Shown here one piece after another: positions 153 through 54,500 of a DNA stretch of 64,000 nt. A program made the translations under genes and the position numbers. How positions within the stretch are numbered: the first letter of the stretch is position 1; the number at the start of each line of letters is the position of its first letter. The notes under the pieces were generated by a model. That model did not search any database and had not been told where the DNA came from. It saw only the letters and a list, made by a program, of their open reading frames with translations. Location of the stretch: the NCBI GenBank assembly GCA_964383705.1, contig CAYLHJ010000002.1, forward strand, positions 1,635-65,634. The letters run 5' to 3'. The stretch comes from an uncultured Candidatus Saccharibacteria bacterium. GTDB taxonomy: Bacteria; Patescibacteriota; Minisyncoccia; Phycocordibacterales; Zambryskibacteraceae.

Positions 153-2528
153 CTACGAATATAATTGCGACTTATCAAAAGCAATGTGAGAACCTGGTCG
201 TAAATTTCCTGAAATTATTCTGTCAGCAATTATTTTTTCAACTTTATCTTGTATTGCGCGATTCAATGGTCGTGCTCCAAATTTAGGATCACTCCCTTTT
301 TCTACAAGATAGTTAAGCAAGGTGTCATTTACCTCCAGCGTAACTCCTCTCTCTCGGAGTCGCCATTCAAGTTTTTTTAGAAGCATTTTTGCAATCTCTT
401 TAAGGTTGGCTGGGGAGAGCGGATGGAATAAAATGACGCCATCAAAGCGGTTCAGAAGTTCTGGACGAAAAACACCGTCACTTACAATCGAATTTATAAT
501 AAAATCTTTACTCTCCAAAAGGTCTTCCCCCTTCCCAACTGCATCAAAGATGAATTGGCTACCAGCATTTGAAGTTGCAATGATGATTAAATTCCTAGCA
601 CTAATTTTTTTACCTCGAGAATCCGAAAACACCCCCTCGTCAAGAATCTGGAGAAAAAGGTCTAGAACTCTCTTTTCTGTTTTTTCAAATTCATCAAGAA
701 GAAGAACTCCGTAAGGATTTTCTCGAATTAAAGAAACCAGAACACCCTGTTGATCTTGCCCGAAACCGCCTATCAAACGATTCAAAGCATCTGGAGTATT
801 GTATTCGGACATATCGAGACGGAGGATTTTTGCTTCTTTACCAAAAAATATTTCCGCAAGAGCTTTTGTTGTTTCAGTTTTACCAACTCCAGTAGGCCCC
901 AAAAAAAGAAATGAGCCGATTGGTCTATTCGGATTATTTATTCCGGACCGCGCACGACGAAGAGCGTCACTAATGAGTGAGACCGCCTCGTCTTGTCCAA
1001 CAATGCGTTGGTGTAAAAACTCTTCAAGTCGCGTTAGCGTATTTCTTTCCGTATCAGTTATTTCTCCAGTAGGAATTCCTGTTTTTGTTTTAACTAATGA
1101 TTCAATATCTTTATCCATTACTGTCGTTCTGCCAACCGATCTAGCTTCTGCCACAGCACCAATCAATAAGTCACTTGCCGTATCATAAAGCGGTGATCCG
1201 ACAAAATAGCGTGACGCACTTTGAACCGCCTCTTTAACAGCGCCGTATGTAAAAAAGATTCCTTCTTTCTCCTCCAAAACAATAACTTCTTCCATCAAGA
1301 CATCAGAGACCCGACCCTCATCTCCGTCCTCTATAATGATAGTTTCAAAATATTCCATGAGCTTTTGATCGCGCTCAAGGTGATTATGAAATCCTTCCCC
1401 ATCACTTACTGCAATAATGTGAATATCAGGTGAAACGAGAAACTCTGACATGATTGCAACAGCATCACTTTGTAGTGTTTCAGCCCCATATAAAAGACCC
1501 GGAAGATCTGGAATGACAAGAATAATATTGCCCGACTTGATAACTTCTCTAAGAATCTTTAGAAATAAGCGCTCAAACGAAGTCCCGTCTGAGACTGAGG
1601 AAAGTAAAGTCTGCACGGCAAGCACAAGAAATTTCTTATCATGGAGTGATTCATTGGTTTTTTTGTGAATTATTTTTTGGGCTAGACCCTTTATTATTTC
1701 CATCTTTCCACCACCATCTTCACCAATGACCAAAGCGTTAGCTTCTGATGATTTAGAAAGTACGGTTTCTAGTGTTTTGATTTCATTGGCGTAAAGATCT
1801 TTCCCTTGTTCAAGCGATAAATCTAATGAGCTACTAAATTTAAGAAGTGCATAAGCATTACCATATGCCCAATCTCTGCCTATTGGAGATAATCGATTAA
1901 GACGCGCCCTTGACCACCATCGCTCCTTTTGAATTAAATTTTTTTCTAAATCTGAAACCCAGCGAAAAGTATTCCAAAAAGTTTCTGGAGTAACTCCATG
2001 AGCACTGAGAAAGGTTTGAAATTCTTTTTCACCAGATATTAATCCTGAAATAAATGATTCAGCCTTTGATGATTTTTGTGAGAAAACAAAATCTGAAGGT
2101 TTAACCGTTTTCTTTCTACTATCAAGGAATATTTCAATAGAAGCATCGTCAATCCCAAGTCGCATCAAAGTCAAAGCGCCATAATAAGATTCAATGAAAT
2201 TGAGAATTAAATCTTTTCGATTCGAAGAAAAAATAATAGAAGCTAATTCAAATTCGTAAGCACTGTTTCTTTTATCAAAACGATATGAGTAATAAAAAGA
2301 CTCCATTATAAATACAATGAGAAAGGCCGATAAGACAATGAAGAAGAATCCGGACATTGCCCCACTCGCTTGCTCTACAATAATTCCACTTGAGATAACA
2401 AAAGAAATTAATACCAAAAAACCTAATATTTTTATAAACAATCTGCGAGTACTATGAGAAATGCTTTTTTCAAGAAAAAATACTGGTTGCAGATATGAGA
2501 TTTCTTTTTTTAAATCTTCTAAATTCAT
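153..2528 (-). CDS. Clp/Hsp100-family AAA+ ATPase, membrane-anchored, with degenerate first AAA module
   Basis: The second AAA module is canonical (Walker [21 protein letters not shown], sensor and arginine-finger region, ClpB_D2-small-like C-terminus). The first module aligns to ClpC D1 but has Walker A GEDGGGKM and a Walker B-like ILVIPDLP with the DE acidic pair missing. Two N-terminal hydrophobic helices replace the usual Clp_N repeats. Start taken at MNLEDL (2528) rather than the ORF-track start at 2672. Confidence 0.8.
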   Translation of the reverse strand: MNLEDLKKEISYLQPVFFLEKSISHSTRRLFIKILGFLVLISFVISSGIIVEQASGAMSGFFFIVLSAFLIVFIMESFYYSYRFDKRNSAYEFELASIIFSSNRKDLILNFIESYYGALTLMRLGIDDASIEIFLDSRKKTVKPSDFVFSQKSSKAESFISGLISGEKEFQTFLSAHGVTPETFWNTFRWVSDLEKNLIQKERWWSRARLNRLSPIGRDWAYGNAYALLKFSSSLDLSLEQGKDLYANEIKTLETVLSKSSEANALVIGEDGGGKMEIIKGLAQKIIHKKTNESLHDKKFLVLAVQTLLSSVSDGTSFERLFLKILREVIKSGNIILVIPDLPGLLYGAETLQSDAVAIMSEFLVSPDIHIIAVSDGEGFHNHLERDQKLMEYFETIIIEDGDEGRVSDVLMEEVIVLEEKEGIFFTYGAVKEAVQSASRYFVGSPLYDTASDLLIGAVAEARSVGRTTVMDKDIESLVKTKTGIPTGEITDTERNTLTRLEEFLHQRIVGQDEAVSLISDALRRARSGINNPNRPIGSFLFLGPTGVGKTETTKALAEIFFGKEAKILRLDMSEYNTPDALNRLIGGFGQDQQGVLVSLIRENPYGVLLLDEFEKTEKRVLDLFLQILDEGVFSDSRGKKISARNLIIIATSNAGSQFIFDAVGKGEDLLESKDFIINSIVSDGVFRPELLNRFDGVILFHPLSPANLKEIAKMLLKKLEWRLRERGVTLEVNDTLLNYLVEKGSDPKFGARPLNRAIQDKVEKIIADRIISGNLRPGSHIAFDKSQLYS

Positions 2529-2530
2529 AT

Positions 2531-2917
2531 TTATACGATTTGCTTTAATGCGAGAGCAATCAAAAAAGCAAAAACGACAGGAAACAGGAGCCAGAGAAAG
2601 AAAGATAAAATACCGGCGATGAAGATGGCGGTGGTAACAAAAATGCCGAGGATAATAACCGCACCTCGACAAACAAAACCAACCAAACGCATAATGAAAT
2701 TAATAATAGCCGTTTGAAAAAATTCCTTTGGATGAAAGCCTTCCTTATATTCATCTTGAAGCCTTTTCCATGGCGCAAAAAGCGTCCTTAGGAGAAGAGA
2801 AACAGAAAAATATGTAAACGAGGCTTCAATAAAAATAAGCCAATTAGAGTAGAAATCTTTTAAAGCCCTGCCATAGTGCCATCGAATGTAATACGGCAAG
2901 AACAAAAGCAAATGCAT
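2531..2917 (-). CDS. small integral membrane protein (hypothetical), translationally coupled to the Clp-like ATPase
   Basis: 128 aa with about three hydrophobic helices. Its stop lies 3 nt from the downstream Clp-like start. No recognisable family. Confidence 0.45.
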   Translation of the reverse strand: MHLLLFLPYYIRWHYGRALKDFYSNWLIFIEASFTYFSVSLLLRTLFAPWKRLQDEYKEGFHPKEFFQTAIINFIMRLVGFVCRGAVIILGIFVTTAIFIAGILSFFLWLLFPVVFAFLIALALKQIV

Positions 2918-2934
2918 GTATTAATTATACCTCA

Positions 2935-3744
2935 CTACTCTTGCTTTTTTAAGATAACCTTATTCCCATATTGCAAATCTATTGATTTAACTGTAAGCCC
3001 ACCGTCGTGGAGAACATCTAACTTAGGATCAGATAGAACTGACTCTAGGTTAGATACAACCTTTTCTGGATCATCACGGAGAGAAAAGAATATAACCCCA
3101 GTAGAAAGCTTCAATTCATATGTCTCTCCGACCACATGATTTAAACTTTCAAGGTTAAGGCCGAGAGAGCGAAACCCTGACAAAAATCTATTCATTAAAT
3201 CAAATTCTTTTTGTGGTAAATAATAATCGCCGAGCGGAGAATCATCTAATCTGCCGATATATACGAAATAAACGTTCGGAGAAAATGTTGGCGATTTATC
3301 AAAAACAAAACCTCGGCTATCTAAGAAATAACAGTCAGAGAAAGTGTCGTCTTTGCACCAAAGTGATTGGGGATTGCGCTCGGTGATTGAAATTTGGATT
3401 GATTTTAAAGAAGAAAGTTTAATTTTTACATCATCCACACGCGGAAAATTTAAGGCAATTTCTTTTTGGATTGTTTTTTTGGGATAAAGTAAAGTATTTG
3501 ATTTTGGAAATAAGAAAAAATAATTTCCGGTCAGATGTCTTTTTGAAAGCTCGATAATCTCATCAGACCTCACCACAGAGCTCCCCAAAACTTTAATTGA
3601 AGAAATCGTCACAAAATCAGCTCTAGATAAAAAAACCGGGCCAGCAATAACAAAAATAACTATCGATAAAAAAAATACTGAACGAAAAATAATTTTCTTG
3701 CGGCGCTTTTTTATAAGGTTCGGCGAACGCAAAGAGCGAGGCAT
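2935..3744 (-). CDS. ftsQ: cell division protein FtsQ/DivIB-like (POTRA domain)
   Basis: N-terminal basic tail plus one TM helix, followed by a POTRA-like region (VKIKLSSLKSIQISITERNP), as in FtsQ/DivIB. Confidence 0.6.
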   Translation of the reverse strand: MPRSLRSPNLIKKRRKKIIFRSVFFLSIVIFVIAGPVFLSRADFVTISSIKVLGSSVVRSDEIIELSKRHLTGNYFFLFPKSNTLLYPKKTIQKEIALNFPRVDDVKIKLSSLKSIQISITERNPQSLWCKDDTFSDCYFLDSRGFVFDKSPTFSPNVYFVYIGRLDDSPLGDYYLPQKEFDLMNRFLSGFRSLGLNLESLNHVVGETYELKLSTGVIFFSLRDDPEKVVSNLESVLSDPKLDVLHDGGLTVKSIDLQYGNKVILKKQE

Positions 3745-3756
3745 AATTTCTATTTA

Positions 3757-5025
3757 TTATCTCCCCAAGACCTCCCTGCCATTCAGATATTTTTGCAATA
3801 CTTGAGGGATGTGGACTAGACCATCTCTGTCTTGGTAATTTTCAACCAAAGAAACAAGAATGCGAGGCGTTGGGGCGGCTGTGCAATTTAAGGAATGAGC
3901 ATATTTTACTTTTCCATCTACATCTTTATAACGAATATTAAGTCTCCTTGTTTGAAAATCATGAAAATATGAAGCCGAGCTGATCTCACGATAAGCATTC
4001 TCAAGAGGAACCCAAAGTTCTATATCATATTTTTTTACCTGACCAAGACCAAGATCAGCCCCGCAATTTATAACTGTTCGATATGGGATACCAAGACTTT
4101 CAATAAATTCCTCGGTATTTCTATTTAATTCTTCATGAAAATTAACTGACATTTCATGATTTGCCTCACACAATATAACTTGTTCAACTTTGTAAAATTC
4201 ATGGACTCTAATAAGGCCCTTAACATCCTTACTATAACTTCCGGCTTCTCTTCTAAAGCAGGGAGAAAAAGAAAGAAACTTCTTAGGCAAATCAGAAATG
4301 GGTAGTATTTCATCTGCATGATATCCCATAGTTGCAACTTCTGCCGTGCCTGCTAAGAAATCACCGTCTTGGGTTCTATAAAGATCTTCTTCACCTTGTG
4401 GTAAAAATCCAGTTCCCATAAGATTTTCTCTTCGAACAATCGAAGGAACAATAAATGGAGAAAAACCTCTTTTCAAGAAAAATTCGTAAGCATATTGCCA
4501 AATAGCAAAAGAAAGAAGGGCTCCGTCATTTTTTAAGAAATAACCCCTGAAACCGGCAACTTTCGTCCCCCTATCAAGATCAACCATATCTAGAGATTCC
4601 ATGATCTCAATATGATTTTTTGGTTTAAAATCAAATTTCGGAATTTCTCCCCACCTCTTCACCTCTTTATTGTCTGCATCACTTTCTCCGTCTGGCACAG
4701 AAATATCTGGCACATTTGGAACAGAAACCATAAGCGATTGCCACTCTTTCATTATCTCTTTAAGCTCCGCTTCCTCTTTTTGAAGTTCTTCTTTTAGAAC
4801 TTTCATTTTTTCAATGTATTCTAATTTTAAGGTTGAATTAGTTTCAGAGACAATCAGATTACTGAACTCATTTTGTGTTTTCCTTTTGTCTTCCACCCTC
4901 TGGAGAATATCCTTGCGTTTATCATCTACAGCAATCAAAGAGCGAACATCAAATTTTACATTCTTTTTACGTGCCGCTTCAGCAATAAGATCAGTATTTT
5001 CTCTAATAAATTTAATATCCAACAT
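3757..5025 (-). CDS. serS: seryl-tRNA synthetase
   Basis: N-terminal MLDIKFIREN followed by a coiled-coil arm. Class II motifs are present (FSPCFRREAGSYSKDVKGLIRVHEF, GLGQ). Start chosen at MLDIK instead of the 16-codon ORF-track extension. Confidence 0.9.
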   Translation of the reverse strand: MLDIKFIRENTDLIAEAARKKNVKFDVRSLIAVDDKRKDILQRVEDKRKTQNEFSNLIVSETNSTLKLEYIEKMKVLKEELQKEEAELKEIMKEWQSLMVSVPNVPDISVPDGESDADNKEVKRWGEIPKFDFKPKNHIEIMESLDMVDLDRGTKVAGFRGYFLKNDGALLSFAIWQYAYEFFLKRGFSPFIVPSIVRRENLMGTGFLPQGEEDLYRTQDGDFLAGTAEVATMGYHADEILPISDLPKKFLSFSPCFRREAGSYSKDVKGLIRVHEFYKVEQVILCEANHEMSVNFHEELNRNTEEFIESLGIPYRTVINCGADLGLGQVKKYDIELWVPLENAYREISSASYFHDFQTRRLNIRYKDVDGKVKYAHSLNCTAAPTPRILVSLVENYQDRDGLVHIPQVLQKYLNGREVLGR

Positions 5026-5106
5026 AAAATTCAAAATCTGGCATATAGCCCTTAGTATTAAGCTTTTATACAATATATAGTAGCAGAAAATAGAAAATCA
5101 TTAAAA

Positions 5107-5970
5107 ATGACCTATTTAATTCGTAGATTAAAACCAGAGGAATTCCCGACACTCCTTAAAGAAATACCAGATAAGCCAGAACAGTTATTTTGTGCTGGCA
5201 ATCTACCAGACACAGAGACAAAGCTTATCTGCGTGGTGGGATCAAGAAAATATACCAACTACGGCAAAGAAGTTTGCGAAGAATTAATTTCTCAACTTAA
5301 AGGCTATCCAATTTCAATTGTGTCAGGGCTCGCTTTGGGGATTGACTCCATAGCCCACAAAAGCGCGGTTAGGCACAGCATCCATACGATAGCAATACCC
5401 GGGTCTGGCCTTTCTCCTAAAAATCTATATCCAAGTTCACACAGAAAACTTGCCGAAGAAATCGTGGATTCTGGCGGAGCTCTTCTTTCCGAATTTGAAA
5501 ATGATTTTCAAGCGACAAAATGGAGTTTCCCACAGAGAAACAGAATTATGGCTGGTATTTCCAATGCAACACTTGTTATCGAAGCAGAAGCAAAATCTGG
5601 GACACTCATTACCTCCCGTCTAGCAACGGAATATAACCGTGATGTTCTAACGGTTCCTGGCTCTATTTATTCTAAAAACTCAGAAGGACCTCATATGCTT
5701 ATAAAACTTGGAGCTACTCCTGTTACATCTGGAGACGATATATTAGAGGCCTTAGGTCTTAAAAAAGAAGAAAAACCATCAAGAATTAATTATGAAGAGT
5801 TATCTCAAGAAGAAAGAGAAATAGTGGCGCTACTAAAAACTCCAATTGAAAAAGATGAATTGATACGCAGGGCTGGAATTCCAACTTTTCAAATAAATGC
5901 AATTTTAACTGCTATGGAAATAAAAGGAATCATTGCTGAATCAATGGGAGAAATAAGACTCATAAAATGA
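5107..5970 (+). CDS. dprA: DNA processing protein DprA/Smf
   Basis: Rossmann-like DprA core (VVGSRKYTNYGKEVCEELISQL, SGLALGIDSIAHKSA) and a C-terminal winged-helix-like tail. Confidence 0.85.
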   Translation: MTYLIRRLKPEEFPTLLKEIPDKPEQLFCAGNLPDTETKLICVVGSRKYTNYGKEVCEELISQLKGYPISIVSGLALGIDSIAHKSAVRHSIHTIAIPGSGLSPKNLYPSSHRKLAEEIVDSGGALLSEFENDFQATKWSFPQRNRIMAGISNATLVIEAEAKSGTLITSRLATEYNRDVLTVPGSIYSKNSEGPHMLIKLGATPVTSGDDILEALGLKKEEKPSRINYEELSQEEREIVALLKTPIEKDELIRRAGIPTFQINAILTAMEIKGIIAESMGEIRLIK

Positions 5971-14139: not shown

Positions 14140-16830
14140 CTAAGAAGTTTTCTCTCTTGATTCTAGAAGATTCTCAACCCAAAGACTTCCCTTTCTCCCT
14201 TTTTTAACTTCAAAGGTAAATTCTCCATTTTTTACATCAGCATATATTGAGCCACCTTTAAGAATGCCTTTGGAAATCATAAGAGATGCTACTGGCGTCA
14301 AAATCTTATTTTGAATCATTCGCTTTAGAGGTCGTGCGCCGTATTGAGGATTGTATCCTTCCTTAACTAAAAATTCCAAAGCATTTGGAGAGACATCGAG
14401 AACAATCTCTTTTTGGAGAAGTCTTTCTTTGACCTGCTCAACTTGGATTTTTACGATATCACGAACAGCTTCGGGTGAAAGAATATTAAATAGGATGATG
14501 TCGTCGAGACGATTCAAAAATTCTGGACGGAAACTTTCTTTTACCGCCTCCATAACCTTTACCTTTGCTTCTTCGTAGTTGTCTTTATCGGCACCTTTTT
14601 CCGCAAAACCAATTTTTTCCATCTTATCAATAAATTGCGCGCCTATATTTGAAGTGAGAATTATGACTGTGTTTTTGAAATTAACCACTCTCCCCTTAGC
14701 ATCTGTCAAACGGCCATTATCAAGCACTTGAAGAAGGATGTTAAATACTTCTGGATGAGCTTTTTCTATTTCGTCAAAAAGAATCACAGAATACGGGCGA
14801 TGACGAACCATTTCTGTAAGATTTCCGCCTTCTTCATGACCCACATATCCTGGAGGAGCACCAATGAGCTTAGAGACAGCATGACGCTCCATAAACTCGG
14901 ACATATCGATTCTTATAAGAGCTTTTTCATCATCAAAAAGAAACTCTGCCAAAGCCTTCGTAAGCTCGGTTTTCCCGACCCCAGTCGGACCCAAAAATAT
15001 AAAAGAACCAATCGGCCGATTAGGGTCAGATATTCCCGCCCTGGATCGCTTTATGGTATCGGAAATTTTCTGAACAGCTTCATCTTGACCAATAATGCGC
15101 TTTTTTAGGAAGTACTCCATTCGACCCAGACGCTCTGCTTCTTCTTCAAGCATTCGAGAAACTGGAATACCTGTCCAACGAGAGACAATGTCAGCAATAT
15201 CTTGCTCAGTAATTTCTTCTTTCAAAATCCTACGAGAACTTTGGAGTCTCTTTAAGCGCTTTGATTTTGCATCCAATTCTTTCTCTAAATTTGGTATTTT
15301 CCCATATCGTATTTCAGCGGCTGTCGATAAATCAGCTCTTATTTCCGCCGCTTCCGCTTCAAGTCTTAAAGATTCCAAATCTTTTTTAATTTTTTTAATA
15401 TCACCGACTGTTTCTTTTTCATTTTTCCACTTTAGTTCAATTTCAGAAGTTTTTTCTTTTAGATCTGCGATGTTTTGATCTATCTCTTTTACCCTAACCT
15501 TTGTCTTTGGGTTCTTTGTAGTTCCTAATTCTTTTTTAAGGGCTTCGCGCTCAATCTCCAACTTCATAATTCTTGAGTGGGTCTCCTCAAGTACTGGGGG
15601 CATATTTTCCAATGAGATTTTTAAATGCGAGGCAGATTCATCAATGAGATCAACGGCCTTATCTGGGAGAAATCTGTCAGTAATATAACGACTCGATAAA
15701 TTAACCGCAGACACTATGGCATCGTCAGTGATTCGAACACCATGATAAAGTTCATATTTTTCTTTAAGTCCACGCAAAATGGTTATTGCATCTTCTTGAG
15801 ATGGCTCATTAACAAAAACCGGTTGGAATCTGCGTGTTAAGGCCGGGTCTTTTTCAATATATTTTTGGTATTCCTTAAGTGTTGTAGCACCAATAGCACG
15901 AAGCTCGCCACGAGCAAGAGCGGGCTTTAGCATATTTGAGGCATCAAGAGAACCTTCAGCAGAGCCGGCACCAACAATGGTGTGTATCTCATCAATAAAT
16001 AAAATGACTTTGCCGTCTGATCTCTCAATTTCTTTCAAGATATTTTTTAAACGCTCTTCAAATTCTCCTCGATATTTTGTGCCCGCAATAAGGAGGCCGA
16101 GATCAAGAGAAACTAGTTCCTTATCACGAAGAGATTCTGGAACATTGCCAGACGCCATCTTTAGAGCAAGACCTTCGACAATTGCGGTCTTTCCAACTCC
16201 GGCTTCTCCGATAAGGATTGGATTGTTTTTTGTGCGTCTCGAAAGTATTTGGATAATTCGAGAAATTTCATTATCACGACCAATAACTGGGTCTAATTTA
16301 TTTTGTGATGCAAGTTTTGTAAGACTTCTCGTGTATTTTAGAAGAGATTTGAGTTTCTTTGGTTCCTTTTCCGAATGAGATTTTGTAACACGAAGTTCTT
16401 CTATAACTCGAGTAACTGTAGCTCGGTCAAGTTTAAAGCGTGCAAGTAAATCCCTGGCAGGACCAGGAACATCAATTGCTGCTAAAAATAAATGCTCAGT
16501 TGAGACAAACTCATCACTTAAGCTCTGCGCAATCTTTGCACTACCTTCAATGATCTGCGCAAGTTCGGGTGTAAGAAAAATCTGATATGAGGGGGCAATA
16601 GTAGAAGAAGATTCTGGGGCCTCAATTGATTCTAAAATAGAATCCGTAAGAAGAATTGTATCTACATCTAACTTATCTAAAATAGAAGCGACCATACTCT
16701 CCTCTTGAACAATTAAAGAAGCGAGTAGATGCATAGGGCTAACATGATTTTGTCCACGTTCTATCGCGAGCTCGTGCGCCTTGCGAATTGCCTCCTTTGC
16801 TTTAGTTGTGAATTGATTAAAGGGGTGCAT
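14140..16830 (-). CDS. clpB: chaperone ClpB (Hsp100 disaggregase)
   Basis: Clp_N repeats. Both AAA modules intact ([15 protein letters not shown] / ILFIDEIH; [19 protein letters not shown]). Long coiled-coil M-domain between them. No ClpP-binding loop noticed. Confidence 0.95.
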
Positions 16831-16898: not shown

Positions 16899-17693
16899 CT
16901 ATTTTATTTGGGAAAGCTCTTGACCTATGACACTTGAAGGAACAAAAGTCTCATTCCCCAATGAAAGACTGACACGGATACCTATGATTTCTGAAGACAA
17001 ATTAATGAGGGGTGCACCAACAACACTCGGCACTGCCGTGATATCTGTTTCAATCAATGAAACAGTATTCAAAGCTGACTCTTGTAAACTTGTAATCCTA
17101 CCAATGTAAACAGTGTTCTTGCTTTCCCCATCAAGCGCAATTACTGACTGCCCTAGTTGAGGACGACCAGAACTCAAAGTTGTTACAACTTGAGGAATAA
17201 CTTGATCTTCTCTTTTATCAATCCTAAAAAAGGCAAGATTGTGTTCTGAACCCATTAAAATAAATTTTGCGGAAAACTCTTGCCCGTCTTCAAAAACGAT
17301 TGTGTATGACCCCGAAGCGCTGACATTTTCTCGTTTTGCCGAAACAACAATCCCTTCGCTTGAAACAAGAAAGCCCATACCATAAAAAGGTTTTTGCCCA
17401 TTTGCAAGTCTGTCATCCCAAATACGAACCGTGCTTTTGGTATTTTTTTCAATCGCCTCAATTACTTGATCTTCCTCTTTTACAACAACCGTCACCTCTT
17501 TCACCGTCTCAGTGTTTCCAATTTCAGGAGAAACATTTTCAATCGTTTTTTCAACAACACGATTAATTACTTGAGTCACTCCGGGAGGCGCTTCTTGAAG
17601 AAGCGTGGTGGTTATAATACCCGTAGCAATCGAAGTGACGAAGCTTACAAGAAGCGTTAAAAGAATGAGTTGATTTTTATTTAAATCATTCAT
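16899..17693 (-). CDS. membrane-anchored trypsin-like (HtrA/S1C-fold) protein, apparently lacking the catalytic His and Ser
   Basis: N-terminal TM. Aligns to the HtrA protease domain (TVRIW..GMGFLVSSEGIVVSA..IETDITAVPSVVGAPLINLSSEIIGI). The positions equivalent to the His motif (TNNHV) and the GNSGGPL serine motif are substituted (SAKRE, PSVVGAPL). Confidence 0.55.
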   Translation of the reverse strand: MNDLNKNQLILLTLLVSFVTSIATGIITTTLLQEAPPGVTQVINRVVEKTIENVSPEIGNTETVKEVTVVVKEEDQVIEAIEKNTKSTVRIWDDRLANGQKPFYGMGFLVSSEGIVVSAKRENVSASGSYTIVFEDGQEFSAKFILMGSEHNLAFFRIDKREDQVIPQVVTTLSSGRPQLGQSVIALDGESKNTVYIGRITSLQESALNTVSLIETDITAVPSVVGAPLINLSSEIIGIRVSLSLGNETFVPSSVIGQELSQIK

Positions 17694-42849: not shown

Positions 42850-43458
42850 TCAATATCCAACCACTCTTTCCGTAAAAATGACTAAACGCTCGCTATACAT
42901 CTTTTTTTCCGGAATCCAGATACCATCACATGTTATCAAATTAAGCCTGCTTTCAGAAGATTGTCCGAATATATCCAAAAGTGGAGGATTTAGGTAATCT
43001 ACAAGTCTAATCTCCTTAACGGCAAAGACCACTTTCTCTCCATTGGCATTCTCTGCAATAATTTCATCGCCAATATTTATATCTCTCAAATTATGAAACA
43101 CCGCAGGCTTCCCTTTTCCATCGTCCAAGTGGCCAGCAAGAACCGAATTGCCTATTTGCCCAGGGGTAGGACCGTATTTATACCAGCCAACATCTTCAAA
43201 TCTCTCTGGCACCGCCATATTACCACTTTCAGTTTTACCAACCGAAATCACCGCAGCATCTATACCTAAATTAGGAATAACGATTCGAGTCGGAGCAGAG
43301 GAAGAAACAACCCCGCTATAGACGCTGGCCGGAACTGGCACAACGACCGATCTCTGATCTAAAAAAGGAATCAGAAAGAAAATAATGCCAATAAAAAAGA
43401 GGAGAATAATGGTAAAAATGATTCTGTTCTTAGTGGAATTTAAATCCAAATGAATCAT
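42850..43458 (-). CDS. sortase (transpeptidase)
   Basis: N-terminal TM anchor, catalytic His (VLAGHLD), Cys in LNLITCDG (TLxTC-type), and a downstream Arg. Confidence 0.85.
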   Translation of the reverse strand: MIHLDLNSTKNRIIFTIILLFFIGIIFFLIPFLDQRSVVVPVPASVYSGVVSSSAPTRIVIPNLGIDAAVISVGKTESGNMAVPERFEDVGWYKYGPTPGQIGNSVLAGHLDDGKGKPAVFHNLRDINIGDEIIAENANGEKVVFAVKEIRLVDYLNPPLLDIFGQSSESRLNLITCDGIWIPEKKMYSERLVIFTERVVGY

Positions 43459-44087
43459 GTAAGCATTGCTATATACAATTTCATCAGTCTAATAATCTCC
43501 AATATAATTTTCTCTCTTTGGGCAAATTCATCCTGAATTTGAGCAGTTACCGGAGTTTGTTTAATAAAAAGGCTGGAAGGAGATTCTTCTTCTGTGGGCA
43601 ATCCGAAATAAACCACGATATATTGTCCAACTTTTCCATTGTGTTTACCAGGCTCCGCCCCTACTCCTATCTCTGTATAAACACTATTTAGGATGTTTGC
43701 CTTGTGTTTTGATGATTTTATCCAATTTTTTAAAACCTCCTTTGGTGAAGATAAATCTACTGCCAAATTTTCCCCCGCCAATTTATATTGATAGCCGACT
43801 TTTGCAAGTGAAGGCCAAGGTTTATCTTTTGCTGATTTAATGTGCACAAGGTAACCAAGCGAAACAAGCTCTTTGGCCCTATCTTGAGCGGCCATAGATA
43901 GTAAAGAATTCTCTAAAAGAGCACTTTTACCTTGAAGTTCCCTGTATTTATTTATTTCTGTAATTAAGCCATTAATATCAAATTGACCAGACGCAAAGCT
44001 CGTCACATAAAATGATAAAAAAAACAAAACAAAACAAGTAATCCCAACCAGAGGTTTTATCGCCATACATTTATTATACCAATACAA
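43455..44087 (-). CDS. CAP/SCP/PR-1 (YkwD-like) domain protein with signal peptide
   Basis: Signal peptide plus a CAP domain (AQDRAKELVSLGYLVH..GENLA..NWIKSSKHKANILNSVYTEIGV). Overlaps the sortase start. Confidence 0.7.
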   Translation of the reverse strand: MYWYNKCMAIKPLVGITCFVLFFLSFYVTSFASGQFDINGLITEINKYRELQGKSALLENSLLSMAAQDRAKELVSLGYLVHIKSAKDKPWPSLAKVGYQYKLAGENLAVDLSSPKEVLKNWIKSSKHKANILNSVYTEIGVGAEPGKHNGKVGQYIVVYFGLPTEEESPSSLFIKQTPVTAQIQDEFAQREKIILEIIRLMKLYIAMLT

Positions 44088-44126
44088 GCAACAACCATGC
44101 GATTGTTATTTGTCTTAGATATAAAT

Positions 44127-47100
44127 TTAATTAGTCTTTCTTTTCTTTGAAACAGAAGCGGAAACCAAGTTCAAACCCATAATAGATAGAGTCAGTGAAA
44201 TCAAAGCCATGAATGTTGAGAATGACTTTTTGTTGTCTGCAAAATTGATTGGACCATTCCCCGCATTTGGCAAACCTGGGAGCTCCGAAGTTGCACCCAA
44301 AACTTCCCCTAAAGGACTTATGCCGCCGGCGCCACCGCCACTTCCACCACTACTTCCACTGCTACCCCCACCACCCCCATTATTTCCACTACTACCACTA
44401 CTACGACGTGATGAAGGTGAAGGTGGATCATCATCACTTGTATCAACATTAGTTACAATTATCTCTTCTTCTGAAGAATCATCATCGTTTGAATTCACCA
44501 CATCAAATTTCTCTATAGACTCATCAATAGAAACTTCACCAAGACCAGAGATATTTTCCCAACCATCTTGCATAATTTCATCTAGAACATAATCTCCAAA
44601 TGGAACATCTTCAAATGTTACGCAACCATTGTCTCCTGTAACACCGCTATATCCTTCATAAATGTCAACTAACAAACTACCGGAATTATCTGCAAACCAA
44701 GATGGGTTTTGAACATTGTTTTCTCCATCAAATATGCCGAAGTTAACGGGGCCATCTGAAAGCGGAGTGAATGACTGCCAATAACTGTGATCACCCTTAT
44801 ACCCGCCCCAGAAACTAAACTGGCCTTGAATTCTTAAATCCAACACATCATCTGACTGCGAGAAGCCCGGATATACTTCTAGCGGTGATACCCAATTATC
44901 TACAGTAGAATATTCTGCATCTGCTGGATTATTTCCTCCTTGATTTGTCCATGTCCCGATTGCATTAGCTAAATACGAAGTTCCGGAAAGGAGAGCTACC
45001 GAATCTGCTCCAGCAACTAGACTAGAATCAACTGATAAATCGTTCTGAACTTCTTCCCCTCGGAGCATTATTGTCCATCCAGAAAGAAGGTTTTCTTCTG
45101 AAATTTCATCATCGTATTTACATACGGTTACACCAGCAATTTCTGGATCAGGTTCACCATCTCCCGGATCATTTGGTTCTTCTGGCTCACATGCACCAGA
45201 GCTAATTCCCAAAGTTACTGAAGATGAGGCGCTAATTTCACCATCCTCGCCATATGAGGCGCTAGCATTTGCTGTGTTTTTTACGTCACAAATATTTGGC
45301 ACCTTATGAAACACTCTAACAGCATCGACATCATAACCGTCTGCTGTTGTTTCAAATAAACTTTTATTAGATGACTCTGAAAGACGAATCTTGTCTGATG
45401 TGGAGAGAGAACCTAAATCAACTTCACCATCGCGATCAACAATACCTAGATCAACCCAGTTAGATCCATCCCAAGCCTCAACTTTTACCGATTCTGTTGG
45501 ATATGTTCCGCCCGTAGTCTCATAAACCTTAATATCATTTCCAACACCATTCCATACTGGATTATCAAAGGTAACAACAATATTTCCATTATCAAACCCT
45601 AAAGCAAAGAAAGAGTTCGGGACAACAACATCAGAAGCGCTTCCATTTGTTTGAGCTACACCTAATATATAGCTTGGATCAGATCGTTCTGGTAAAACAT
45701 TTGTTCCATCTTTCCTTTTCCCTTGATTATTATCTGAAGTACCACTAGCCCATTCATTCATTGATAAGGCGGCGTCTAGAGTTACTTCAAAAGATAGTGA
45801 CCCGTTTGCTCCAGCACTCTTTGATCCAAGATTCCATGTTACAGTCCCTGGTAGAAGGCCATCATGTACTCCGCCATCTGTCGCAGAATCAACGACATAT
45901 GTTGTGCCAGTCGGTAAGTTGTCAGTAATAACTAAATTATCTACATCATCATCGGAAACTTTCCAATCAATGGTAAAAGTAATTTTACCAGTGCTTGTAG
46001 CAAATGTTGCACTCTTTGAGAGCTCTAGGGAAGGAAGATCGGGGCAAGTTTCATTCTCAACTATAATATATCTATCTTGTTCTAAATTCTCAAAATTTGG
46101 TGATTGAGATAGTAGGTCGTTAGCCTTAGCATCAGCAAAACTTCCACCAACTCTGTACCCCAAAAGTCTATACTCGCCAGGAGAACATTCTCCACCAATT
46201 GGAATAACCCTACCGTCATCTGTTATTTCATTCGTTGAATAGTCAGCTGGAGCGTTCATAACGGCTGTATTTGCTTCATATGGGTCACCATTAAATCCAG
46301 TTGCATTTAACCCATAGAAACCACTGCCATTATTTCCAGGATAGACTACATCCCCAACTTTGACTTCAGGCCAATTCCAACTTGATTGCATTGGAAAATC
46401 ATAATCATTGGCAGATTCAGAAGTTGCATGTTCACCATCTAAGTATTTTGCTATATGAACAACAACAGTATTTCTCTCTTCGGGAGGAGGAGGTGGTGGT
46501 TCACCACAATCTTTACCATTCCATGAAAGAGCAAACATTAGGCCTGCTGGATTGGATTCTGGACTACTTCCATCAACTCCTTTATTAGTTGCCTCAATTT
46601 TTATTTCATTTGACCCACTTACGAGCAAACTAGATACATCGTAGGAATCTTGAGTGCCTATTTGAAAATTATTCTCATCAACAAGTTCTGCTCCAACCTG
46701 AATTCCATTTACCCAAACAGTGTAGAAATTATCTGCCGCAACATTTAATGTGCCACCTATTGGCGTTCCAGGGATGTTAAAGTTTTTTATAAATGTTTTT
46801 GTAGTATCTACCAAAGTGTCTGCTGGCAAGACTGGATTTTCAGACCAAATCCACTTTGCACTATCACTACTTCCATCTACATCAGCATCCCATGCTGGGT
46901 GCGTAGGCGACAAAACGACAGCAAAAGTGTCTGGGGTATCACCTGGATTATCTAGTTTGGTATCGTTATTACTTACTACCAAACCATCTATAGGATCACA
47001 TTCTTCTTTTTCTTCTTTACATTGCACGCTTACATTGTCGAGGAATGTTCCAACAGAGTTGCCAGTTCCACGATCCTCAAATTGGATACGGGAAAGAGAA

Positions 47101-48446
47101 TCATTTGCAACAACCGTTTTTGAATATTCTGTCCATTCCGTTTGAGAATCAGTGCTATTCAAAGAAAATGGTGAACCATTAACATCTGTCCCTTCCCAAG
47201 TAACTCCAAGAATATTTTGGGTATCATTTTCTCCAGGTCGAGGTGAAAAAGCGAATTTTATTTCATATTCACGACCAGGAACAGTAGGAATATCTTGATA
47301 AATTTTTGTTGAAGCCGGCTCTCCGCTTGTATCCCCATCTGGGCCTTCCCAGTCACCGTCTAATTCAGTATGTTGCAAACCGTCAAAAGAGAGCCAACCA
47401 TTAACATTCCTATGAAGTTCGAGGCTTGCTAATTCTGGCTGATTATCCCCACCAAATGGTCCTTCTGTATTCATCCATTCAACGGCCCAATCAAGATTAG
47501 AAGTCCCATTGTCAAAATTATCCCATAGTGCTCCGTGTGTAACTTCAGGGTTTTCGAAACTGCCATTCTTTATGAGTTCCTCTCCTGGAACGCATTGGGT
47601 TGGTTCCGGTTCAGGATCACGGGGAGCATTTTCTTCACACCAAGCGTCTCTAGTTTCTTTTTCTTCAGCATCTTCCCCTTCATAAGGAAAATCGCCGTGG
47701 TCCTCATGTTCATTCCAAGCACTTTCATTTATTTTAATTGCTTCCCATGGGTTTTCTTCTGAACCAGTAGCGTGACAAATATTTATTTTTTTCTCTTCAG
47801 ATTCTCTTTTTGTGCCCGTTACTTGGACATTATCAACTCTGGCGCCGCTCTTACTTGAATATGTTTTACCATCAAATTTTATAACAACAGAATCGTCAGA
47901 AAGTTCTGTCGGAAGAGCAAAAGTGACCTCAGGACTCCACACCGTTACATTCTTTATATGATATTCACCTAATTGTGTATATGAGGCATCAGTAGCTTTT
48001 TTCCAATAGACAATAAGTCGATCTGTAGATTCAACTTTATCGCCCGAATCTCCGCGCCACTTGAATGTCAACTGTATATTTTTGTATCCAGACACATTAA
48101 CAGAGTGAGAAATGGAAGCATTCTCTGTAAGACGAGCATTGGCACCAACAAGAGGAGAATTAACATCCTTGCGAGCAAAACTGGCGTTTCCTTCAATCTC
48201 CACCCAACCATTTCCAACATTGTCATTGTTTACAGCACCAAATGATTCTGAAAATAATACACTTGGAGATAAAGCTATCGCCTCCTTGACCGCAATGAGG
48301 CCTGGGCCAAATGCCTGAATGATCATCAAGAGAGACAATGCAATACTAGTAGCTGGACGAGCTTTCTTGAAAAGGAGTTTTGAGATTTTTTTTCTTTTAT
48401 AAATCATATTAGTAATTATTAATAATGTTAATAAAATAAACCACAC
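44127..48446 (-). CDS. giant cell-surface protein (1439 aa) with C-terminal sortase-type sorting signal
   Basis: Signal peptide, then long beta-rich Asn/Asp/Gly/Thr-rich repeats. A Gly/Ser linker (GGGGGSSGSSGGSGGGAGG). The C-terminus has an LPGLPNAG motif, a hydrophobic helix and a basic tail (SKKRKTN). Confidence 0.8.
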   Translation of the reverse strand: MWFILLTLLIITNMIYKRKKISKLLFKKARPATSIALSLLMIIQAFGPGLIAVKEAIALSPSVLFSESFGAVNNDNVGNGWVEIEGNASFARKDVNSPLVGANARLTENASISHSVNVSGYKNIQLTFKWRGDSGDKVESTDRLIVYWKKATDASYTQLGEYHIKNVTVWSPEVTFALPTELSDDSVVIKFDGKTYSSKSGARVDNVQVTGTKRESEEKKINICHATGSEENPWEAIKINESAWNEHEDHGDFPYEGEDAEEKETRDAWCEENAPRDPEPEPTQCVPGEELIKNGSFENPEVTHGALWDNFDNGTSNLDWAVEWMNTEGPFGGDNQPELASLELHRNVNGWLSFDGLQHTELDGDWEGPDGDTSGEPASTKIYQDIPTVPGREYEIKFAFSPRPGENDTQNILGVTWEGTDVNGSPFSLNSTDSQTEWTEYSKTVVANDSLSRIQFEDRGTGNSVGTFLDNVSVQCKEEKEECDPIDGLVVSNNDTKLDNPGDTPDTFAVVLSPTHPAWDADVDGSSDSAKWIWSENPVLPADTLVDTTKTFIKNFNIPGTPIGGTLNVAADNFYTVWVNGIQVGAELVDENNFQIGTQDSYDVSSLLVSGSNEIKIEATNKGVDGSSPESNPAGLMFALSWNGKDCGEPPPPPPEERNTVVVHIAKYLDGEHATSESANDYDFPMQSSWNWPEVKVGDVVYPGNNGSGFYGLNATGFNGDPYEANTAVMNAPADYSTNEITDDGRVIPIGGECSPGEYRLLGYRVGGSFADAKANDLLSQSPNFENLEQDRYIIVENETCPDLPSLELSKSATFATSTGKITFTIDWKVSDDDVDNLVITDNLPTGTTYVVDSATDGGVHDGLLPGTVTWNLGSKSAGANGSLSFEVTLDAALSMNEWASGTSDNNQGKRKDGTNVLPERSDPSYILGVAQTNGSASDVVVPNSFFALGFDNGNIVVTFDNPVWNGVGNDIKVYETTGGTYPTESVKVEAWDGSNWVDLGIVDRDGEVDLGSLSTSDKIRLSESSNKSLFETTADGYDVDAVRVFHKVPNICDVKNTANASASYGEDGEISASSSVTLGISSGACEPEEPNDPGDGEPDPEIAGVTVCKYDDEISEENLLSGWTIMLRGEEVQNDLSVDSSLVAGADSVALLSGTSYLANAIGTWTNQGGNNPADAEYSTVDNWVSPLEVYPGFSQSDDVLDLRIQGQFSFWGGYKGDHSYWQSFTPLSDGPVNFGIFDGENNVQNPSWFADNSGSLLVDIYEGYSGVTGDNGCVTFEDVPFGDYVLDEIMQDGWENISGLGEVSIDESIEKFDVVNSNDDDSSEEEIIVTNVDTSDDDPPSPSSRRSSGSSGNNGGGGGSSGSSGGSGGGAGGISPLGEVLGATSELPGLPNAGNGPINFADNKKSFSTFMALISLTLSIMGLNLVSASVSKKRKTN

Positions 48447-51598: not shown

Positions 51599-54500
51599 TT
51601 AGGAGAGATTGTTTTCTTCGATTTTAATAATCGTGCGAATTTCCTTTTTCCTGGATATTAGCCAAAAGAGAGAAGCTGAAACGATAATAATAAGTAAAAT
51701 AAGTGGCAAAATTATTACATAGAATTCAAGGACAAAAATTAGAACCGTAGCAATGACAAGCCCAATCGTGAATATAAATGTTTTTCTAATCTGAGCAGAC
51801 TCTTCCGTCAAAGCTCCGTTTCTATTCTGAAAATTAACAATTCCGCGAGACAGTAAATATATGGATAGCAATATGGTCAAAAATACCGCAATTGCATTCA
51901 TTGATTCATCCCAACCTTGTGGACCAGCAAAAACTGCCGCCGCTAGAGAGCGAAAGTCCCTTTCTTCTCCAATTTCATTCTCGGTACTAGAGGCGCTTAT
52001 CATTGCTACGCTATTTGGGTCCTCAGCAACAATAGCCCCAGTAGCGAATTGAATGCCCTTTTGGGAGAGAATTGGGGATTCTTTTGTCCTTGATTGAGAA
52101 GTATCTTGTCCTTGATAGTTATTTTGTCCTTGATACCCCCTATCTAGATCTGAAAAGCCTTGAGCTTTCAAGCTTGTGAGGAAGTTTCTAAAATCAACTA
52201 TCTCTTGCTCCTGCTGGGCATTCAACGGAAATGCTTGATTACATACTATTTCATTTACCTTTTTCTTCGTAAGAATATAGACAAATCCAGTACTTTGATC
52301 ATGACCCCAAGGAGTGAGGATGTCTCCAATATAGCGCTCCTGAAATACTCCTACCGCATCATAGGTTCCTTTATCAAATACGCCAGTGATTGGGAGATTC
52401 TTGAAACCCTCTAATTCTCTTAGGAAAACTTGGAGTTTAATAACTTCAAATGAATCGTTAACCCAATCTATACGCATATAATCTTCCAAGTAGTTGCACG
52501 CCAAAGTCGCACCAAGGACTTCTGGCTCTGGTCGGTTTCTGCTACTTCGTCCGCCACCACCACCCCCACCACCACCGCCATTGTCTCCCCCTCCACCACC
52601 ACCGTTATCTTCTGGATCAATAACAATTGTTAGGGTCTCCGTGTCACTACCGCATTGATTTGTAGCAGTAAGTAAGACAGTAAATGTTCCTGATTCGGTT
52701 GGAGTACCACTTAAGACATTGCTGGAAACAGAAAGGCCGGCAGGAAGAGTTGAGGTTGCTATGTTGTAAGTAATTGGTGTTGTTGTGCCGGTCGCAGTAG
52801 CAGAAAGTGTGTATGAAAAGGCATTTCCAACTTTACCGCTAGCCGTTAGTGCACTATCAATAGCTGGCAATGGGCAACTTGGTCCTTGAACACGAGTAAC
52901 AACGACGCTGTCTGTCGCATGTTGACCAGAAGCGTCTTGGCAATCAATTAAAAATGTATGACTTCCATTTGTTGGTGGATAAAAAGGACTTTGAGAATCA
53001 ATCGGGCCAGCACTTCCATTTAAAGCAACTAAACCAAGATCCTGAACACCTTGGATAGAAAGATTGCATGAAGTTGTATTCGTAGAAACCCAATTAACTG
53101 TAAATTGTTCGCCACTTGAAAGAAGAAGCGGACCTTGAGAGCCGTTAGCTGTGATGTCTGCGGTTGGAGATTGGGGTAAGCAATCAGTAGAAGATGTCGC
53201 GGTAACGGTATTTGATGGGTTGGAATCCCCTCTACTATTTGTTGCTTTAACAAAATATGAGAAAGATGTGCTTGCATTCACCAAATCCGTATAAGAAATC
53301 GCTGTTGTAGAAGCAATCTCAGATCCATTTCTAAATATTTTATAGAAAGATGCCTGTGAAACGGCGTTCCAAGATAAGTCAATTCGACCACCGCATTGAG
53401 AGCCAGTATTAGCAGAAAGGTTTGGAGATTGTGGTTTTCCCCCTCCACCACCACCGTTATCTTCTGGATCAATAACAATTGTTAGGGTCTCCGTGTCACT
53501 ACCGCATTGATTTGTAGCAGTAAGTAAGACAGTAAATGTTCCTGATTCGGTTGGAGTACCACTTAAGACATTGCTGGAAACAGAAAGGCCGGCAGGAAGA
53601 GTTGAGGTTGCTATGTTGTAAGTAATTGGTGTTGTTGTGCCGGTCGCAGTAGCAGAAAGTGTGTATGAAAAGGCATTTCCAACTTTACCGCTAGCCGTTA
53701 GTGCACTATCAATAGCTGGCAATGGGCAACTTGGTCCTTGAACACGAGTAACAACGACGCTGTCTGTCGCATGTTGACCAGAAGCGTCTTGGCAATCAAT
53801 TAAAAATGTATGACTTCCATTTGTTGGTGGATAAAAAGGACTTTGAGAATCAATCGGGCCAGCACTTCCATTTAAAGCAACTAAACCAAGATCCTGAACA
53901 CCTTGGATAGAAAGATTGCATGAAGTTGTATTCGTAGAAACCCAATTAACTGTAAATTGTTCGCCACTTGAAAGAAGAAGCGGACCTTGAGAGCCGTTAG
54001 CTGTGATGTCTGCGGTTGGAGAACCTGGCGGATTCACAATCGGTGGATTCACAACAACAGAATCCGTAGCGGTCTTTCCATTTCCATCATCACAGCTAAT
54101 ACTGTAAGTGACCGCCGTGTCTGTCGGATAAAAAGGATGTGATGGTGAAAGATCCATCTCGTCAGAAAGATTAACATTTGAATCAATCGGGGCCCCCAAT
54201 GAACAACTTTGTGTGTTAGTAGAATCCCATTCAATTAAAAGATTTTCTCCTTGCGAAAGGGTAATTGGTCCCTGAGAGCCATTTGCTTTTATATCCACAG
54301 TCGGATCATTTGAAGGAACATTGTTGCTGGAAACTTTAAAGCGGGCAACCACACTACCTTGGCTTTCCCAACCAGGAGCAATAGTTCCAAGATTTACACC
54401 CTGTGATGTTACGAACTCATCTCCAGTCTGCCCAAAAGGAAATTTTTTTGATGAAAGAGACTGGTCTGGATACCATTTTGTAGAACCCGGTATATAGGTG

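Follow-up and report, generated by a model that had tools for sequence, protein, structure and literature searches.

We analysed a 64-kb stretch of contig CAYLHJ010000002.1 (hereafter the window, meaning that stretch at its full length), which carries near its beginning a compact run of four genes on the minus strand. The run encodes, in this order, seryl-tRNA synthetase (SerS), an FtsQ-like protein, a small membrane protein (hereafter the partner) and a Clp/Hsp100-like AAA+ protein anchored by transmembrane (TM) helices (hereafter the ATPase), and the genes are separated by 12, 17 and 2 nucleotides (nt), respectively (Table 1). Hsp100 proteins are textbook soluble threading machines. The branch represented by the ATPase is a membrane-integral, two-component Hsp100 derivative that is previously undescribed in the literature we searched, in which full-text searches located neither a bacterial Hsp100 with a membrane anchor nor the partner family. 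Judged from its members, this branch would depart from Hsp100 in five respects: it is membrane-integral, its first ring is dead, its gripping tyrosines are lost, it is locked to a tiny membrane protein to which it is sometimes fused, and its motor ring can be lost. The window is AT-rich (~31–43% GC), and the genome with the nearest named relative of the locus is that of a Candidatus Zambryskibacteria. A database protein, P0001, is identical to the window ATPase.

Table 1 Genes, domains and motifs of the locus, with the separate ClpB gene of the window. Residue numbers are those of the ATPase.
Feature	Position	Strand	Details and evidence
TM-anchored Clp/Hsp100-like AAA+ protein (ATPase)	153..2528	-	791 aa; stop codon 153..155; open reading frame and start-codon analysis, Pfam, NCBIfam, PDB alignments
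N-terminal cytoplasmic helices, residues 1–33	2430..2528	-	Conserved L19, E20, R28; family alignments; predicted helices 3–9 and 11–22, pLDDT ~95
TM hairpin, residues 34–52 and 57–75	2304..2429	-	Loop of ~4 residues; hydropathy, structure prediction, family conservation
Diverged Clp_N-like N-domain, residues 88–205	1914..2267	-	Repeat 1 with four helices; repeat 2 without its first helix
Signature linker ERWWS...IGRDWAYG, residues 202–223	1860..1925	-	Joins N-domain to D1; W205, G217, W220, Y222 and G223 (nearly) invariant
Degenerate D1 AAA+ module (predicted pseudo-ATPase), residues 248–465	1134..1787	-	Alignments to ClpB, ClpC and ClpA; census of 150 members
D1 Walker A, GEDGGGKM, residues 269–276	1701..1724	-	Canonical GEPGVGKT; column-for-column alignment with ClpB and ClpC
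D1 pore loop, SVSDGTSFE	1572..1598	-	No Tyr; alignment; loop in motif table SSVSDGTSFERL
D1 Walker B, ILVIPDLP, residues 336–343	1500..1523	-	Canonical ILFIDELH; column-for-column alignment with ClpB and ClpC
D1 Arg-finger site, LMEYFE	1344..1361	-	MEYFE, canonical ERRFQ; alignment
D2 AAA+ module (predicted catalytically intact) with D2-small domain, residues 466–791	156..1133	-	Pfam, ClpB D2 match, census
D2 Walker A, GPTGVGKT	876..899	-	Canonical; alignment
D2 pore loop, atypical and short, LIGGFGQDQQGVL	738..776	-	Contains GGFGQDQQG; 4 residues shorter, GYVG lost; alignment
D2 Walker B, LLLDEFEK	681..704	-	Canonical LLLDEIEK; alignment
D2 sensor-1, TSN	561..578	-	N654; canonical
D2 Arg finger, NRFD	441..464	-	R694; canonical
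D2 sensor-2, GARP	258..278	-	Canonical
Small membrane partner	2531..2917	-	128 aa; conserved N-terminal half, C-terminal TM hairpin
FtsQ-like protein (TM segment and POTRA_1)	2935..3744	-	269 aa; Pfam POTRA_1, E = 1e-5, 26.2 bits (cut-off 23)
SerS, seryl-tRNA synthetase	3757..5073	-	Pfam Seryl_tRNA_N and tRNA-synt_2b; first gene of the same-strand run
Separate ClpB	14140..16830	-	End-to-end match to the ClpB model at 1199 bits, slightly under the 1232 cut-off

The start of the ATPase gene was assigned to the ATG at 2528, which is 2 nt past the TAA stop codon of the partner open reading frame (ORF). A TTG at 2672 would give the longest ORF and was rejected because it would overlap the partner ORF. 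The in-frame starts at 2441, 2417 and 2357 were likewise rejected, since they lie at or within hydrophobic helices and the residues before them are conserved. Because residues 1–33 are conserved in homologs, with L19 and R28 kept at ≥90%, the genuine start lies upstream of the TM helices. The two helices of the hairpin have Kyte–Doolittle hydropathies of 2.4 and 2.6. Consistently, AlphaFold2 (AF2), supplied with a 39-sequence alignment, modelled the hairpin as helices 25–47 and 56–83 with predicted local distance difference test (pLDDT) scores >90; residues 1–200 as a whole scored roughly ≥90, and the predicted template modelling score was 0.79. The hairpin and the residues preceding it are conserved in >150 homologs. 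Thus, the two TM helices near the N-terminus claimed in the original prediction, a set of observations made from the letters of the window alone, were confirmed together with a start upstream of them, and orthologs do keep the anchor. Reading from the sequence, basic residues sit at both outer ends of the hairpin and none in its loop; both ends of the hairpin would face the cytoplasm. In the AF2 model, the tether between the second TM helix and the N-domain is short (~10 residues).

These data bear on a trivial explanation, that the gene encodes a normal cytosolic ClpC or ClpB whose start was mis-called or whose unusual features stem from a sequencing artefact. Public records do name relatives of the ATPase "ATP-dependent Clp protease ATP-binding subunit ClpC" or hypothetical, and the former name would suit this explanation. 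However, the anchor and the residues in front of it are conserved family-wide, and the later in-frame starts would lie at or within those helices. The ATPase also scores far below the NCBIfam equivalog cut-offs, with 413 bits for ClpB (cut-off 1232.1) and 362 bits for ClpA (cut-off 993). Furthermore, the degeneracy of its first AAA+ module extends across the family (see below), and a true ClpB is encoded separately. The latter gene had already been recognized in the original prediction as a canonical clpB, and its end-to-end match to the ClpB model bears this out. We regard the trivial explanation as effectively refuted.

Pfam detected only AAA_2 (residues 535–696, E = 3e-39) and ClpB_D2-small (residues 704–783, E = 1.5e-23) in the ATPase. 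The NCBIfam ClpA model, on the other hand, covers residues 248–783 in a single stretch, and ClpB from the PDB aligned its D1 to residues 225–463 (55 bits) and its D2 to residues 466–785 (282 bits). We compared the motifs of both modules in a MAFFT alignment with ClpB, ClpC and ClpA references. The degenerate Walker A and Walker B motifs reported earlier for D1 were upheld on this alignment, in which D1 does not retain the catalytic residues. Additionally, sensor-1 of D1 reads AVSD in place of the canonical GATT. The earlier claim that D2 is fully canonical held for the catalytic motifs and failed for the pore loop, which is shortened and has lost GYVG (Table 1).

To define which of these features belong to the family, we performed a residue census of 150 full-length members. 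The Walker A Lys of D1 is kept in 73 of the 150, and the Ser/Thr that should follow it is essentially absent; the commonest residues at this position (M, I, L, R, E and Q) account for 132 members. The catalytic Glu of D1 occurs in 5/150 and an aromatic residue (Tyr or other) in the D1 pore loop in none. By contrast, Walker A, Walker B, the sensor-1 Asn, the Arg finger and the sensor-2 Arg of D2 are invariant (150/150). The D2 pore loop is 4–6 residues shorter than the canonical loop throughout the 150; it contains any aromatic residue in 79 members and none in 71, and the clade of the window ATPase keeps one (GGF, GGY or GAF). In more distant TM-anchored relatives, the pore loops, the Arg fingers and the IGF loop have been lost in the same way. 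The census thus lends good support to the prediction that D1 is dead across the family and that D2 is catalytically intact. Zero aromatics in the D1 loops and 79/150 in a shortened D2 loop also point to a non-threading character. Three TM-anchored relatives (P0025, P0028 and P0040) have a canonical D1 Walker A (GxxGxGKT), yet their D1 pore Tyr, Arg fingers, D2 GYVG and ClpP loop are already missing; these proteins may reflect D1 decay at an earlier stage.

We also checked D2 for the (I/L/V)G(F/L) loop that docks ClpP, which the original prediction had left to be looked for. The loop was not found in D2 and is replaced by a deletion of 7–9 residues exactly where ClpC and ClpA carry LGF, MGF or IGL. 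Because the docking loop is absent, the public name "Clp protease ATP-binding subunit ClpC" is probably misleading. No peptidase domain was detected in the ATPase by Pfam or NCBIfam. Within the 64-kb window, neither the annotation nor a probe with the E. coli ClpP sequence revealed a ClpP gene, the probe returning noise only. The M-domain, which is inserted in the D1 small domain of ClpB and serves as its DnaK/Hsp70 coupling element, was not found in the ATPase either: ClpB residues 402–527 have no counterpart, leaving a gap of ~125 residues relative to the window ClpB.

Compared with known Hsp100 proteins, the ATPase resembles ClpA and ClpC in the order of N-domain, D1 and D2, in an N-domain that appears to be of the Clp_N type and in its AAA_2-type D2 with a D2-small domain, and it shares with ClpA the direct D1–D2 junction, as reflected by the uninterrupted match to the ClpA model. 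It differs from both in the TM hairpin, in the obligate membrane partner and in the losses from D1, which comprise the Walker A Thr, the Asp-Glu of Walker B, the Arg fingers and the pore Tyr. Relative to ClpA, ClpC and ClpE, it also lacks the ClpP loop and the D2 GYVG and stays far below the family cut-offs. The best sequence match of D2 is to ClpB/Hsp104 (282 bits); the alignment is gap-free through the region where ClpC has its ClpP loop, which neither protein possesses. Unlike ClpB/Hsp104, however, the ATPase has no coiled-coil M-domain, a degenerate D1 and no canonical aromatic pore loops, and it is membrane-anchored. By homology, the ATPase is a member of the Clp/Hsp100 superfamily, yet it does not show the hallmarks of ClpB, of ClpA, ClpC and ClpE, or of a generic threading Hsp100. 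In terms of class I Clp/Hsp100 membership, it has the two tandem modules homologous to Clp D1 and to D2 plus D2-small, and lacks a competent D1 and the aromatic pore loops (KYRG in D1, GYVG in D2).

The original prediction held that the usual Clp_N domain had been replaced by an uncharacterised domain of ~230 residues. Our analysis contradicts this on two counts. First, the region is not one domain; it comprises a cytoplasmic helical segment, the TM hairpin and a double repeat. Second, this double repeat appears to be a diverged Clp_N. Pfam searches with single sequences at E values up to 1 returned nothing relevant for the N-domain, and a direct hhalign comparison of the family N-domain with canonical Clp_N reached a probability of only 37%, with both repeats in register. 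A transitive comparison was more informative. The N-domain of the window family aligned to the P0019 group with 97.6% probability (E = 4e-12), and this group in turn aligned to canonical Clp_N with 95.3% probability (E = 2e-8), both repeats being covered. The bridging subfamily consists of the more distant TM-anchored P0019, P0015, P0016 and P0020, and Pfam gives a weak Clp_N match in P0019. Supporting this assignment, the AF2 model of the isolated N-domain (pLDDT 83.5) retrieved only Clp N-domains among its top 15 Foldseek matches in the PDB, namely those of ClpC1, ClpC and HSP101, with the N-domains of ClpA and ClpB ranking lower. The similarity in these matches is weak (probability up to 0.82, E = 0.2–2, TM-score 0.35–0.44). 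The best reading of these comparisons is that the N-domain is a diverged Clp_N without the first helix of repeat 2, which would have been retained, with a TM hairpin gained on its N-terminal side.

The ATPase gene is tightly coupled to that of the partner. In 51 of 51 assessable loci a partner homolog lies directly upstream on the same strand (a 52nd locus begins at a contig end), and the junction is typically an overlap or a gap of a few nt. The partner was also found at L004–L006, L059–L061, L063 and L064, and some loci hold it although no gene had been called there; it is kept in the distant ATPase subfamily as well (E = 1e-35). Members of the partner family are ~129 residues long and carry YxxWHY and FSPWKR motifs in the conserved N-terminal half, followed by the C-terminal TM hairpin. 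The family comprises 324 clusters at 90% identity, all of which are named hypothetical except one (JGI: small-conductance mechanosensitive channel). Searches of Pfam (E up to 1), NCBIfam and PDB profiles identified no relatives and returned noise only (DUF2207_C, E = 0.16; SPT small subunit, E = 0.36).

In two lineages, represented by P0022 and P0017, independent in-frame fusions have joined the partner to the N-terminal end of the ATPase. P0022 (L065:742-3312) is one intact ORF on its contig, and that contig has no separate partner gene. In this fusion the TM hairpin of the partner takes the place of the ATPase hairpin and leads straight into the N-domain. Since the two are joined directly, the C-terminus of the partner must be cytoplasmic. 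The close coupling to a small membrane protein that was noted originally is thus strengthened by the 2-nt gap, by the 51 loci and by the two fusions. Sequence comparison gives good support to the view that the partner is an obligate component of a two-component system.

To determine the extent of the family, we ran an exhaustive HMMER search with residues 1–250 only against representatives at 50% identity. The search recovered at least 308 clusters at 50% identity, 181 of them at E = 1e-10 or better, and most members are 790–830 residues long. A word-indexed search with the N-terminal profile returned 5 fragments only. Independently, a scan of one genome per species, which used an 11-sequence alignment and the linker motif as search pattern, yielded 52 loci. 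These come from Patescibacteria records (Paceibacterota/Parcubacteria, Zambryski-, Kaiser-, Nomura-, Taylor- and Yonath-bacteria, Minisyncoccia and one Berkelbacteria) and include third-party annotation assemblies titled "uncultured Candidatus Saccharibacteria". The sole record from outside Patescibacteria is L024 (NZ_JBAQPS010000366.1, 1523 bp), which is binned as Sulfuricurvum sp. and carries the gene pair; it is probably a binning contaminant. The ATPase family is specific to Patescibacteria (candidate phyla radiation, CPR), a group of ultra-small bacteria.

Roughly 85% of the family members listed are full-length. About 19 clusters contain shorter proteins of 464–517 residues that align to residues 1–480 and end within ~10 residues of one D1/D2 boundary; they were counted from protein lengths, except for three loci inspected on DNA. 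At these three loci (L059:4287-5753, L060:5001-6443 and L061:3634-5112) the orthologs are 480–492 residues long, and each ends at a real stop codon. No D2 remnant was detected there with tblastn. All three occupy the same dprA<->serS–ftsQ–partner slot, and at L060 a terminator-like hairpin follows the stop codon. The P-loops of the D2-less forms have decayed further than D1 of the full-length proteins, and the D1 fold is conserved. Because the short forms often have full-length proteins as their closest relatives (47–53% identity), several independent losses have to be assumed, which suggests that D2 was lost repeatedly. As these orthologs keep both the partner and the genomic slot, the function may be partly independent of ATP. 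The term "unfoldase" used in the original prediction is thus doubtful in light of the missing D1 pore Tyr, the shortened D2 loop and the D2-less orthologs in the same syntenic position, although the other elements of that description, a membrane tether and a single competent ring, stand.

The D2-less forms raise the possibility that the complex is a pseudoenzyme, a primarily ATP-independent membrane scaffold in which the TM hairpin, Clp_N, pseudo-D1 and the partner form the core, for instance as a divisome or envelope platform, and D2 is a losable accessory regulator. Clean and repeated loss of D2 at the domain boundary while partner and synteny persist, conservation of the D1 fold along with greater active-site decay in the D2-less forms, and an N-terminal half that by itself is conserved enough to recover the 308 clusters would all be expected of such a scaffold. 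On the other hand, the D2 catalytic residues are invariant in the full-length members, which implies strong selection on hydrolysis, and full-length proteins make up most of the family. We consider a mainly ATP-independent scaffold quite unlikely.

A second alternative is that the ATPase serves as a membrane-protein extractase in quality control, like a protease-less FtsH or like Msp1/ATAD1. The Clp_N-like domain and the partner would select damaged or orphan membrane proteins at an entry face on the membrane, and D2 would thread these clients from the bilayer, so that they could be refolded or passed to another protease and degraded. The N-terminal anchor indeed puts the N-domain/D1 entry face at the membrane, as the TM anchors of FtsH and Msp1/ATAD1 do with their pore entries; moreover, a Clp_N-like domain for substrates or adaptors is kept, D2 is predicted to be fully active from its invariant motifs, and the D2 loop of the window clade has an aromatic residue. 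These points are countered by the absence of the D1 pore Tyr from every member, by the 71 members whose shortened D2 loop has no aromatic at all, by the D2-less orthologs that keep the partner and synteny, and by the lack of both a protease domain and a ClpP loop. FtsH and Msp1/ATAD1 also belong to another AAA+ clade and have a single ring with canonical aromatic pore loops, and FtsH carries a C-terminal M41 zinc protease, for which the ATPase has no equivalent in Pfam or NCBIfam. An extractase is, in our view, somewhat unlikely.

The ATPase might also be the motor of a membrane translocation device for polypeptide import or export, in which a channel made of hairpins and partners shares its axis with the AAA+ pore, as in the HSP101–EXP2 assembly of PTEX, the Plasmodium export machine in which a ClpB-type ATPase docks on a membrane pore. 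In a hexameric arrangement of this type, twelve hairpin TM helices plus the partner helices would surround the axial pore, the HSP101 N-domains are among the structural matches of the N-domain, and both systems couple a ring of the Hsp100 family to membrane proteins. CPR bacteria are host-dependent and their lifestyle relies on uptake; the window also has dprA next to the locus, although it is encoded on the opposite strand and its linkage is not conserved. The geometry, however, is the opposite of PTEX: Hsp100 proteins move substrate from the N-domain side towards D2, and here the anchor is on the entry side. HSP101 is soluble, docks by its D2 end and has two active rings with pore tyrosines, whereas the ATPase is anchored by its N-terminus and lacks canonical pore loops. 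Minimal extracellular loops, the existence of D2-less orthologs and the neighbourhood counts over the loci, which revealed no consistently linked secretion or competence genes, further weaken this explanation, which we judge very improbable.

The neighbourhood of the pair was examined across the loci. As originally noted, the pair in the window lies beside ftsQ: the adjacent gene on the same strand encodes an FtsQ-type POTRA protein, and SerS follows upstream. In relatives, however, the conserved unit is the gene pair itself, and the ftsQ linkage looked for in the original prediction is limited. An ftsQ-like gene occurs within 4 kb upstream in 16/51 loci, being adjacent in 12, and also in all three D2-less loci; an iterated FtsQ model revealed no further divergent copies, and the count stayed at 16. 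The serS gene is found within 4 kb upstream in 14/52 loci. The serS–ftsQ linkage is common to the closer relatives and the D2-less forms, about a third of the loci. Downstream of the pair, membrane-anchored M14 carboxypeptidases were found in 15/51 loci (24 ORFs, with tandem copies in 9 loci). Other neighbours are dus (10 genes downstream) and xth (8 upstream). At L059, an S11 DD-carboxypeptidase lies immediately downstream. In the distant subfamily, the pair at L063:1116-8020 is followed by DUF4015, mraZ, rsmH, an FtsL-like gene and ftsI, that is, by the division and cell wall (dcw) cluster, and DUF4015 lies downstream of the pair at L064 as well. Cell-envelope and division genes beside the pair are thus a recurring theme, coming from three or four syntenic blocks.

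Taking the protein and its surroundings together, we tentatively read the locus as a membrane-bound system of two components that is powered by D2 and remodels proteins of the membrane or cell envelope, a reading to which we give slightly less than an even chance. The architecture is well supported, and from it we infer the function. The ATPase probably acts at the membrane in a way other than classical protein unfolding, because it is membrane-bound, has one dead ring and no canonical gripping loops, and comes with a constant partner. By analogy with established Hsp100 structures, it would form a ring with the N-domains capping D1. The TM hairpins and the partner subunits would fix the N-domain/D1 face to the inner side of the membrane; this orientation follows from the short tether between the second TM helix and the N-domain, which leaves that face at the cytoplasmic side of the membrane. 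The membrane-distal D2 ring would then be the only motor, and its ATP turnover could drive conformational changes through a rigid pseudo-D1/Clp_N layer into the membrane-embedded part. The clients would be membrane proteins that are assembled, disassembled or otherwise remodelled, with parts of the division and cell-wall machinery as the most plausible candidates. The ATPase would neither feed a protease nor act as a DnaK-coupled disaggregase. In the D2-less lineages, the TM/Clp_N/pseudo-D1 subunit and the partner would persist as an ATP-independent scaffold.

Several points weigh against such a remodeller. Ring formation, orientation and contact with the partner are inferences. The three or four syntenic blocks that make up the neighbourhood were each probably passed on by descent and so provide few independent observations; among the neighbours, serS, dus and xth are as frequent as the envelope genes. 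Hardly any part of the hairpins or of the partner is extracytoplasmic, so that an influence on the wall would have to be indirect. Threading by the window protein itself remains compatible with the data, as the D2 loop keeps Phe or Tyr in its own clade (GGF, GGY). Finally, the perfect conservation of the D2 catalytic residues means that ATPase activity matters wherever D2 is present.

A more specific form of the remodeller is suggested by the eukaryotic torsins, which are related to Clp/Hsp100, reside at a membrane, lack aromatic pore loops and work with a degenerate, non-nucleotide-binding AAA+ module and with the small TM cofactors LAP1 and LULL1 (PMC5425593). Set beside torsins by description only, the ATPase is alike in logic and not in orthology: it shares the membrane location, the absence of canonical aromatic pore loops, the degenerate AAA+ companion and the small TM cofactor. 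The differences are clear as well. Torsins consist of a single D2-like module and borrow the Arg finger from their cofactor, whereas D2 of the ATPase has its own invariant Arg finger (R694, 150/150). The degenerate module of the ATPase is fused in cis as D1, and the ATPase is cytoplasmic, whereas torsins are luminal (endoplasmic reticulum and nuclear envelope). The locus could be a bacterial counterpart of the torsin principle, that is, a non-threading membrane derivative of Hsp100 whose pseudo-ATPase ring and partner form a scaffold at the CPR division or wall machinery that is switched by a detachable D2 ring. We regard this analogy as possible and rather doubtful. If it were true, the pair would be an AAA+ machine of a new functional class, and CPR envelope biogenesis would have in it a component particular to this lineage.

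Patescibacteria have minimal genomes, and their division and envelope biogenesis are poorly understood. Conserved, lineage-specific and repeatedly located near ftsQ, the dcw cluster and wall peptidases, the gene pair is a candidate component of the CPR division or envelope machinery. The ATPase branch would also be a natural test case for AAA+ rings that work without threading and for the role of pseudo-ATPase rings. The anti-phage ATPases DolB and PDC-M37B (PADLOC) were considered as well and rejected, since only the D2 core (residues 472–657) matches them and the genomic context is housekeeping and syntenic across species.

Regarding transcription, no terminator-like sites were predicted between the serS, ftsQ-like, partner and ATPase genes. 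One promoter-like match (2924..2952, minus strand), with TTAAAA, a 17-nt spacer and TATAAT (10/12 matches), falls within the ftsQ-like gene at its 3′ end, a short distance upstream of the partner gene. From this site the pair could have its own transcript, bearing in mind that promoter-like matches in the region are no commoner than in shuffled sequence. The true start of serS is likely the Met codon at about 5025. Upstream of serS, dprA (5107..5970, plus strand) sits between serS and topA. At L062, whose ATPase is 97% identical, dprA is missing from this position and only ~360 nt separate topA from serS.

Elsewhere in the window, the separate ClpB has an insertion with a tripeptide-like motif, "KIGF", at the site of the ClpP-docking loop of ClpC and ClpA, and a gene for a trypsin-like peptidase (16899..17693) follows the ClpB gene. 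At 42850..48446 (minus strand), genes for a sortase, a CAP-domain protein and a 1439-residue DUF11 protein lie in a row, and a 1127-residue He_PIG (Ig-like) protein is encoded near this row at 51599..54982 (minus strand). These are likely to be surface proteins that an episymbiont anchors by sortase.

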